DNA of 64,000 nucleotides, from NCBI GenBank assembly GCA_963785235.1, contig CAWAUM010000005.1:416001-480000 (forward strand), read 5' to 3'. The position numbers and the translations under genes were made by a program. The first letter of the stretch is position 1. Each line of letters begins with the position of its first letter. The notes beneath the pieces are model-generated. The model searched no databases, was not told the origin of the DNA, and worked only from the letters and a program-made list of their open reading frames with translations. Source of the DNA: an uncultured delta proteobacterium (GTDB lineage: Bacteria; Desulfobacterota; Desulfomonilia; UBA1062). This document shows, in pieces, positions 28,326-29,615 of the stretch.

Positions 28326-28414
28326 TATCAGATGGTATATGGACTGTCAATATCTGAAGCGGCTGATACAATTTGCCTCTTGCCCTTCCGAAAATAATCT
28401 GCTATATACAGGTT

Positions 28415-28486
28415 ATGATTACAGTTTCAGCACACAGTTTTTATGGCTATTATTTTTGGTTTAGGAAGTGGCCGCCTGTGGGCTGA
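28415..28486 (+). CDS. Aromatic-amino-acid attenuator leader peptide (23 aa, MITVSAHSFYGYYFWFRKWPPVG)
   Basis: Read directly from the sequence: 3 Phe, 3 Tyr and 2 Trp codons, seven of them within eight consecutive codons; lies upstream of DAHP synthase and is followed by a terminator. Confidence 0.85.
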   Translation: MITVSAHSFYGYYFWFRKWPPVG

Positions 28487-28505
28487 GCTGTTCGTAATCG
28501 AACAC

Positions 28506-28545
28506 AAAGGCTGTGGGTGGTCACCTTCCCACGGCCTTTTCATTT
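28506..28545 (+). terminator. Attenuator terminator upstream of DAHP synthase
   Basis: AAAGGCTGTGGG-10 nt-CCCACGGCCTTT then TCATTT; ends 50 nt before the GTG start. Confidence 0.8.
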
Positions 28546-28595
28546 GTGGCCTCCAGGAAGTGACACACACGGCATAAAAAGTTAAGGAGGCTAGT

Positions 28596-29615
28596 GTGAT
28601 CATTTCAATGAAAAAGAGTGCCACTCAAGAACAGATCGACCATGTCAAGATCCTTATCGAGTCATTCGGATACCGGGTTCACGAGAGCATAGGATCGGAA
28701 AGGGTAGTCTTCGGGGCTATCGGCGACGAGAGAGGCAAAGAGAGGCTCACATGCCTCGAAGCACAGCCTGGCGTTGAGAAGGTTATCCGCATACTCACCC
28801 CATACAAGCTTGCTTCCCGCGAAACCAAGCCGGAGTCCACCATTGTTGACATTGGAATGGGCGTAAAGGTCGGCAACCACCGCATTGCCATCTTTGCCGG
28901 TCCATGCGCAGTAGAATCAAGAGAACAGATCATGGAAGTGGCCAAGACAATCAAAGAAAGTGGCGGTCATATATTGAGGGGTGGTGCCTTCAAACCGCGG
29001 ACCTCTCCATACGCCTTTCAAGGTTTGAAGAATGACGGTCTCTTGCTCCTGTCTCAGGCAAGGGAGGAATACGGGATCCCCGTTGTGACCGAGGTCATGG
29101 ACATTGCAAGCATTGAGGTTATCCTGGAGAATGCTGACTGCCTTCAGATCGGAGCCAGAAACATTCAGAATTTCCAGCTTCTTAAGGAAGTGGGTAAGAC
29201 AAACAAGCCGATATTGCTCAAGCGAGGCATGTCTACAACCATCGAAGAGTTACTCATGTCAGCCGAATACGTGATGGCCGCAGGCAACAGCCAGGTTATT
29301 CTCTGCGAGCGTGGAATCCGTACCTTTGAGACAGCAACACGCAATACCCTGGATCTCTCTGCCGTGCCTGTTCTGAAGGAGAAAACCCATTTGCCCGTCA
29401 TCGTAGACCCATCACATGGTACCGGACATGCCCGCTATGTGGAGGCCATGTCGTATGCTGCTATCGCTGCTGGAGCTGACGGGCTCATGATCGAGGTCCA
29501 TCCGAAACCCGAAGAGGCACTGTCAGACGGTCCCCAGTCCTTACGGCCTCAAGAGTTCAAAAAGGTCATGGATGGAATCAAGCTCATTGCACAGGCTGTG
29601 GGCAGGGATATATGA
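28596..29615 (+). CDS. aroF: DAHP synthase type I-beta with N-terminal ACT-like regulatory domain
   Basis: [58 protein letters not shown]. Confidence 0.96.

Follow-up and report, generated by a model that had tools for sequence, protein, structure and literature searches.

A probable leader-peptide attenuator with Phe, Tyr and Trp codons upstream of a type I-beta DAHP synthase gene in an uncultured Desulfomonilia bacterium

A 64,000-nucleotide stretch of DNA from an uncultured Desulfomonilia bacterium, referred to here as the window, contains a gene for a type I-beta DAHP synthase that is preceded by a short open reading frame (ORF) rich in Phe, Tyr and Trp codons and by an intrinsic terminator. 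We analysed this leader region, its counterparts in related and distant genomes and further leaders in the same genome, and we conclude that it very probably is a ribosome-mediated leader-peptide transcription attenuator that controls the DAHP synthase gene. The elements between promoter and gene are as follows.

28380..28385, plus strand: −35 element TTGCCC
28400..28408, plus strand: extended −10 element TG-C-TATATA, predicted from sequence
28415..28486, plus strand: leader ORF of 23 codons, ATG at 28415, TGA at 28484-28486, peptide MITVSAHSFYGYYFWFRKWPPVG
28415..28456, plus strand: RNA strand 1, the anti-antiterminator partner of strand 2 in the minimum free energy fold
28439..28462, plus strand: regulatory run F-Y-G-Y-Y-F-W-F, codons 9-16
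28464..28495, plus strand: RNA strand 2, with 28464-28481 pairing with strand 3 and 28463-28495 pairing with strand 1
28489..28504, plus strand: small hairpin UGUUCG-UAAU-CGAACA, enclosed by the antiterminator
28506..28545, plus strand: intrinsic terminator (RNA strands 3 and 4) with U-tract, stem 28506-28517/28528-28539 of 12 pairs
28584..28590, plus strand: Shine-Dalgarno sequence AAGGAGG of the DAHP synthase gene
28596..29615, plus strand: DAHP synthase, type I-beta, GTG start, with an N-terminal ferredoxin-like domain (Pfam PF00793 and PF18152)

The DAHP synthase matches NCBIfam NF006421 with 499.5 bits against a cut-off of 335, and its GTG start aligns with the MIISMKK start of relatives. 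The leader ORF MITVSAHSFYGYYFWFRKWPPVG contains three Phe, three Tyr and two Trp codons, and seven of the eight codons 9-16 are aromatic. The ORF, the terminator stem, the antiterminator with several G-U pairs and the small hairpin had all been called in an earlier reading of the letters alone (the original prediction), and each of them is present as described there. That reading overlooked a further helix, the anti-antiterminator between strands 1 and 2, which joins codons 1-8 and the aromatic run to the 3′ end of the ORF.

The terminator has a G+C-rich stem with one U-G among its 12 pairs and two inner pairs besides; UCAUUU follows the stem, and together with three U's of the stem the tail reads UUUUCAUUU. 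The hairpin has an energy of −22.7 kcal/mol. A simple terminator scan made no call at this hairpin, which we attribute to a loop that, as the scan counts it, exceeds the limit of 3-8 bases. The antiterminator pairs 28464-28481 with 28511-28529 through 18 pairs, seven of them G-U, with one bulged C. Terminator and antiterminator are mutually exclusive helices, as are antiterminator and anti-antiterminator. Compared with 1000 shuffles each, the duplex 2:3 (antiterminator) at −27.1 kcal/mol was equalled or undercut once, and the duplexes 1:2 (anti-antiterminator, −28.4 kcal/mol) and 3:4 (terminator, −21.7 kcal/mol) were never reached. The whole stretch 28410-28560 folds at −59.1 kcal/mol (z = −4.8), a value equalled by none of 200 shuffles.

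We searched for the DAHP synthase gene in 41 genomes (the window's own and 40 of its genus, family and class), found it in 40 and obtained 30 loci of relatives. A short ORF rich in Phe, Tyr and Trp codons lies upstream of the gene in all 30 loci, in 29 as detected by a script and in one (L022) as found by reading. For the alignment, we took 24 rows that belong to the family type of the window (L001-L022, L040 and L042); L031-L039, L041 and L043, whose leader peptides are identical to rows already included, were left out. The ORF frame is kept in 24/24 rows, all gaps within the ORF are multiples of three and the stop codon is aligned. The seven aromatic positions of codons 9-16 stay aromatic in 21-24 of the rows: codon 14 is Phe throughout, written TTT in eight rows and TTC in 16, codon 15 is Trp in 22, and Phe and Tyr replace each other at codons 9, 10, 12 and 16 with the aromatic nature retained. 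The P-P-V-G-stop end of the peptide is kept in 21/24 rows. As far as sequence can tell, such a pattern points to selection at the level of translated codons and not on bases alone.

The helices are conserved as well. Terminator pairs are formed in 95.2% of cells, with one pair changing from UA to CG in three rows, and the small hairpin is paired in 83.8% of cells, with three pairs that change on both sides; the best slid control for these two structures scored together reached 59.0%. For the antiterminator the value is 88.0% (at most 51.3% when slid), with 11 cells in five pairs changed on both sides, and for the 1:2 helices 78.7% (at most 50.1% when slid), with ten pairs that change on both sides. 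Because strand 2 pairs with both strand 1 and strand 3, the nucleotides of the W/G-P-P-V-G-stop codons are conserved. The original prediction had proposed conservation of the ORF and covariation of the helices in relatives as checks; the ORF recurs with its frame intact, and the pairings of terminator and antiterminator are preserved among relatives, where some pairs differ on both sides.

Directly after the terminator, the segment GGCCUCCAGGAAGU (28547..28560, plus strand) is complementary to the terminator 3′ arm and loop, and in single-sequence folds it pairs with 28525-28536 in many rows; RNAalifold gave a weak consensus of −1.9 kcal/mol for the stretch after the terminator. The longer stretch 28547-28575 reads GGCCUCCAGGAA. 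Its CACACAC (about 28564-28572), which occurs mainly in aligned rows with a GTG start, can pair with the GUGUG that surrounds the start codon of the DAHP synthase gene.

A covariance model (R1) was built from the aligned sequences of the element and searched against 122 genomes of the class. At full length, 44 matches scored 69 bits or more; they come from 43 genomes, every one a member of the window's family. With a limit of E = 0.001, the model matched 48 of the 51 genomes in this family. The window itself scores 140.1 bits, its own match by construction. A second family of the class has aromatic leaders of its own before the DAHP synthase gene, followed by a terminator in 8/8 loci and positive in a crude antiterminator test in 5/8; these leaders end differently from P-P-V-G-stop. 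Outside the class, we sampled 67 type I-beta DAHP synthase loci from many phyla and dropped four with less than 200 nucleotides of upstream sequence. An ORF with at least six aromatic codons in eight, at most 400 nucleotides upstream of the gene, was found on the sense strand in 19/63 loci versus 1/63 on the reverse complement.

Six Clostridia-type loci (L058, L060, L061, L063, L065 and L069) have their own aromatic leaders before DAHP synthase, and loci of this type contain a conserved ORF that is roughly 50 codons long, one version of which reads MEKLIRKGNVEQF.FYF.SW.YFYF...; it occurs twice in L063. Leaders of further lineages read MI[FI]PVRYYFYFWYW... (L087/L088) and MILRPAYFGYYFYG... (L082).

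Within the 3.9-Mb genome of the window, read in all six frames, six sites have at least seven aromatic codons in eight, the leader ORF among them. One of these sites (C5:66475) was discarded for lack of a start codon and lies, by ORF reading without a family search, in the promoter region of a toxin-antitoxin-like pair; another (C9:8405) was discarded as antisense within a gene, and the other three are poly-Phe runs. With a lower threshold of at least five aromatic codons in eight, 185 short ORFs were obtained, four of which are followed by a strong terminator within 140 nucleotides, and three of these four stand before aromatic-related genes. A screen of the genome for Trp, His, Leu, Thr/Ile and other leaders returned mostly ORFs inside genes, and the Thr/Ile, Leu and His candidates that were inspected were discarded on reading.

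The covariance model has a second match in the genome of the window, at C10:160656-160770 on the minus strand (L111), with 48.5 bits. There, a leader MFEKTATRAYYYGFYFRKGVCP and a terminator precede iorA, iorB and a gene for a PaaK-type phenylacetate-CoA ligase. The iorA product (indolepyruvate ferredoxin oxidoreductase alpha) scores 642 bits with TIGR03336, below the cut-off of 650.9. Loci with the same type of leader were fetched from six relatives, in five of which it stands before an IorA-like gene and in one before a binding protein, as judged from the N-terminal sequence of these genes only. All seven loci, L111 counted, share a promoter-like arrangement in which TTGACA is followed after 17 nucleotides by a hexamer and, 6-7 nucleotides further on, by the ATG. 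The arrangement suggests that an indolepyruvate oxidoreductase may be induced by shortage of aromatic amino acids. In L111, iorB consists of two ORFs in different frames (1332-1634 and 1642-1944, minus strand), each of which matches half of the IOR beta model; a frameshift in the genome of the window or an error in its assembly would account for the split.

A third leader, MATRILTNNSFGFFFFD, is of the Phe type and lies on the minus strand of contig C1, upstream of 13917-15212 (L112), with a strong terminator of −26.7 kcal/mol. The genes behind it encode a Peripla_BP_6 amino-acid binding protein and an ABC ATPase, which makes this locus a candidate for a Phe-controlled uptake system.

For the leader before DAHP synthase, the original prediction had offered two promoters. 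Both are present in the sequence, and only TTGCCC-17-TATATA (28380-28385 and 28403-28408) is conserved, TTGCCT-16-TAATCT not. In the conserved promoter, the TTG of the −35 element is invariant in 24/24 rows, the spacer to the −10 element is 17 nucleotides long in 23/24, and the −10 element has an A at position 2 in every row. Counted from this A, the first base of the ATG lies 11 nucleotides away in 17 rows, 12 in six and 13 in one. Because this distance is fixed, the transcript is predicted to start at the AUG or 1-2 nucleotides before it. The 6-8 bases between the −10 element and the AUG are variable and contain no conserved GGAGG; the AAGGAGG of the DAHP synthase gene itself is conserved, with A216, G217, G218, A219, G220 and G221 (alignment numbering) invariant or at least 90% conserved. 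The leader ORF is thus probably translated from a leaderless 5′ AUG.

We folded the RNA with and without a mask for the ribosome, as the original prediction had suggested, and obtained the classical logic for the free, the stalled and the stop-codon state. Unmasked, the RNA of the window adopts the 1:2 helices together with the terminator, at −49.6 kcal/mol. Masking for a ribosome whose A site holds F9, Y10 or Y12 switches the fold to the antiterminator, which encloses the small hairpin; masking for one at the stop codon yields the terminator.

From these elements, we infer transcript start, leader translation, stalling and a response to each amino acid as follows. The promoter TTGCCC-17-TATATA would start transcription on the A of the AUG or beside it, so that translation of the leader ORF would be leaderless. 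Without a ribosome, or with one that has run to the UGA at 28484, strand 2 would be held in the 1:2 helices or covered by the ribosome; with strand 2 occupied, the terminator at 28506-28539 would form and transcription would stop near 28540-28545. A shortage of charged tRNA-Phe, of tRNA-Tyr or, probably, of tRNA-Trp would stall the ribosome within codons 9-16, where it would cover strand 1 and leave 28464-28481 free to pair with 28511-28529. This antiterminator would take up the terminator 5′ arm, and RNA polymerase would read into the DAHP synthase gene.

Several results weigh against this proposal. A mask restricted to the ribosome footprint lets strand 1 pair behind a ribosome stalled at Y13-F16, and with the full terminator present the antiterminator wins the equilibrium in only about 14/24 rows. 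The second Trp codon, W19, lies inside strand 2, where a stall would favour termination. Many pairs of terminator and antiterminator are invariant or variable on one side only; moreover, the comparison with the slid controls is flattered by the relatedness of the rows and by the use of the window's own sequence to derive the structures. The leader AUG has no Shine-Dalgarno sequence ahead of it, and translation of the leader hangs on the leaderless start. As for RNA data, a word search for RNA runs returned a single run with 0.05 of words shared, and four runs compared with the locus yielded only contigs of relatives at 90-95% identity, which cannot show transcript ends; one contig of 233 letters covers 28465-28690, across the terminator and into the gene, and comes from a library that may contain DNA.

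Because the antiterminator wins the equilibrium in only some of the rows, the switch must be kinetic, as in the classical cases. We therefore folded partial transcripts that reach from the leading edge of the stalled ribosome to the terminator loop, with the 3′ arm not yet made. In these folds, the 3′ end of the ORF captures the terminator 5′ arm in 24/24 rows, and the small hairpin is seen within the antiterminator. When the ribosome was stepped codon by codon, the outcome was, on our reading of the output, the same in all 24 rows: the pairing of the 5′ arm survived stalls up to the last aromatic codon (F16 in the window) and was lost one to three codons later. In the fold model, the aromatic run thus ends exactly at the last codon that still permits antitermination. 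W19 lies beyond that codon and inside strand 2; its presence is explained by RNA pairing and not by sensing.

The most serious alternative concerns the number of amino acids sensed. An attenuator that responds to Phe and Tyr only, with the Trp codons incidental, would be a two-input device like aroR of Corynebacterium glutamicum. The run contains a single Trp codon (W15) versus six for Phe and Tyr, W19 is beyond the useful range, and a stall at W15 gives the terminator under the footprint-only mask or at equilibrium. Leaders of a short form of DAHP synthase that has no N-terminal domain (L028-L030) contain no Trp codon, and C. glutamicum aroR, as related in PMC11802643, answered Phe limitation and not Tyr availability, so codon content does not guarantee a response. 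However, codon 15 is kept as Trp in nearly all rows despite its position in an unpaired loop of the model, and a Trp codon occurs in a different sequence context in all five leaders of the other family that stand before the full-length enzyme. Moreover, in the kinetic model, a stall at W15 leaves 8/9 bases of the terminator 5′ arm paired to strand 2. We consider a device restricted to Phe and Tyr unlikely, though the strongest of the competing explanations; the near-fixed Trp codon 15, together with modelled folds that permit antitermination from every stall position up to F16, backs the idea that one device may sense three amino acids.

A second alternative leaves the attenuator intact and moves the transcript start farther upstream, for instance to TTGCCT-16-TAATCT (28373-28400), such that the leader ORF would have a short untranslated stretch ahead of it and a weak AGG at 28410-28412 would drive its translation. 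This promoter does exist in the sequence, and a simple scan calls yet another promoter-like site, CTGTCA-17-TACAAT at 28344-28372. However, the upstream hexamers are not conserved, and the TTG at 28380-28382 and the A's of the −10 element are the only invariant positions. The spacing from −10 to AUG stays within 11-13 nucleotides in 24/24 rows, across variable bases, and the iorA-type leaders share the layout TTGACA-17-GATATA-6/7 nucleotides-ATG. By contrast, leaders of the second family do have a 5′ untranslated stretch of about 24 nucleotides with GAGG, so the contrast is real. A start farther upstream is therefore improbable, and a probably leaderless AUG is what we retain.

It is very improbable that the RNA acts independently of translation, as a riboswitch or as the target of an RNA-binding protein such as TRAP, with the ORF as a by-product. 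The RNA is strongly structured and the 3′ half is highly conserved in its nucleotides, as such a switch would require, but a cmscan of 26000-31000 at E up to 1 gave no Rfam match for the attenuator and only a cobalamin riboswitch on the other strand; the families in question are the Trp, Phe, His, Thr and Leu leader models plus T-box and riboswitch families. The gaps in multiples of three in 24/24 rows and the TTT/TTC and Phe/Tyr changes, which preserve aromatic codons, likewise argue for a translated ORF, as do the leaders of other phyla, which look unrelated and share only the aromatic run at the frequencies given above for sense strand and reverse complement. Least probable of all is ribosome arrest by the nascent peptide, as in TnaC or SecM, whereby W-P-P-V-G-stop would sense a free amino acid and not tRNA charging: Pro-Pro is a slow spot for ribosomes and P-P-V-G-stop is widely kept among the rows, but these codons form strand 2 of the antiterminator, which gives an RNA-level reason for their conservation, the leaders of the other family end differently, and a ribosome held at the stop codon covers strand 2 and gives the terminator, such that arrest would only lock the OFF state.

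The genes on the other side of the promoter point away from it.

28322-28158, minus strand: cobalamin riboswitch (Rfam match, 87 bits), preceding a TonB-dependent receptor gene
26206-28224, minus strand: TonB-dependent receptor, divergent from the DAHP synthase gene
24938-26071, minus strand: chorismate synthase, on the same strand as the receptor and 134 nucleotides beyond it

The upstream gene is divergent and stands behind the minus-strand riboswitch, so it cannot be the gene that the terminator serves. Chorismate synthase, itself encoded by an aromatic-pathway gene, stands downstream of the B12-controlled receptor gene. Directly 3′ of the DAHP synthase gene, an ORF of 175 amino acids (29660-30187) has no Pfam match, and MoaC follows at 30459-30935. 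The same genome encodes a second full-length DAHP synthase at C9:21877-22872, which is 53% identical to the first. No aromatic leader was found in the 450 nucleotides read upstream of that gene; on that basis, the two isozymes would be controlled differently.

If the attenuator works as proposed, flux into the shikimate pathway in this group of uncultured anaerobes is probably set by tRNA charging and not by a repressor. The paralogous leaders extend this picture. A leaderless attenuator design may have been duplicated into a small aromatic-starvation regulon that is read from tRNA charging, with DAHP synthase (Phe, Tyr and Trp), iorAB-paaK (Tyr and Phe) and an amino-acid ABC uptake system (Phe) as members. 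The iorAB-paaK genes would then act anabolically, from arylacetate via arylpyruvate to the amino acid, the DAHP synthase copy would integrate three amino acids, and unannotated leader ORFs rich in codons for these three amino acids, upstream of type I-beta DAHP synthase genes, would form a class that is widespread across phyla and absent from Rfam. We advance these statements as one joint claim and only tentatively, with slightly less than an even chance that it holds as a whole. The leader before iorAB-paaK is a testable hint that indolepyruvate oxidoreductase serves the synthesis of aromatic amino acids, and the covariance model and the 24-row alignment can be used for annotation.

The original prediction knew of no experimentally characterised attenuator with all three aromatic codon types, and our literature search likewise found no experimentally tested one, although subscription journals were largely outside its coverage; the novelty was nevertheless rated too high, given the precedents of aroR-aroF and of an upstream ORF motif in Acholeplasma. 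By title and abstract, and with the same coverage, the search returned no account of the element in Desulfobacterota; searched by title and abstract, no leader peptide before indolepyruvate oxidoreductase was found either.

Overall, the leader before DAHP synthase adds a well-supported case to a textbook class of control devices and does not represent a new kind. The likeness to enterobacterial trpL and pheL lies in the four-strand logic of a 1:2 helix, a 2:3 antiterminator and a 3:4 terminator (as outlined in PMC11802643), with the regulatory codons just before strand 2 and the stop codon inside it. The enterobacterial leaders differ in sensing one amino acid from an ORF led by a Shine-Dalgarno sequence, and they control operons of the terminal pathways and not the entry step of the shikimate pathway.

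Closer in function is the aroR-aroF system of C. glutamicum, in which leader-peptide attenuation of DAHP synthase has been demonstrated experimentally (Neshat et al. 2014, as summarized in PMC11802643, PMC4046766, PMC7356990 and PMC3890552). There, too, a short ORF with mixed aromatic codons stands before the DAHP synthase gene and ribosome stalling raises transcription, with an effect of Phe limitation only according to the summary in PMC11802643. The aroR peptide carries Phe-Tyr-Phe, that is, three aromatic codons without Trp, versus seven in eight including Trp in the present leader, and the organisms belong to Actinomycetota and Desulfobacterota, respectively. The parallel is functional only, and is claimed from the description of the system and not from its sequence.

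The Acholeplasma motif uORFC-13-1 upstream of aroF, obtained by comparative analysis (Brewer et al. 2021, PMC8632094), resembles our element as a computationally found upstream ORF beside an intrinsic terminator, exclusively before a DAHP synthase gene, that is proposed to act by the speed at which aromatic codons are translated. It differs, in a comparison made from the description in that source, by its ribosome-binding site, by Phe encoded in a run of U and by its 24 representatives in one genus, for which the source describes no experiment.

For the leaderless start, precedents are the 14 predicted leaderless leader peptides of Deinococcus deserti, in a paper whose main text does not contain the terms aromatic, DAHP, aroF or aroG (PMC4007540), and the polycysteine leaderless short ORFs of mycobacteria (10.1101/834739). 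As described in these sources, the leader AUG likewise lies at the 5′ end of the transcript without a Shine-Dalgarno sequence; the starts were mapped by RNA-seq there and are predicted from promoter spacing here. The mechanism being a textbook one, a specialist will not be surprised by it, and interest attaches to the codon mix for three amino acids, to a start that is probably leaderless and to the paralogous leader ahead of iorAB-paaK. With its fixed spacing from promoter to AUG, the DAHP synthase leader would offer a clean case for leaderless attenuation outside Actinomycetota and Deinococcota.

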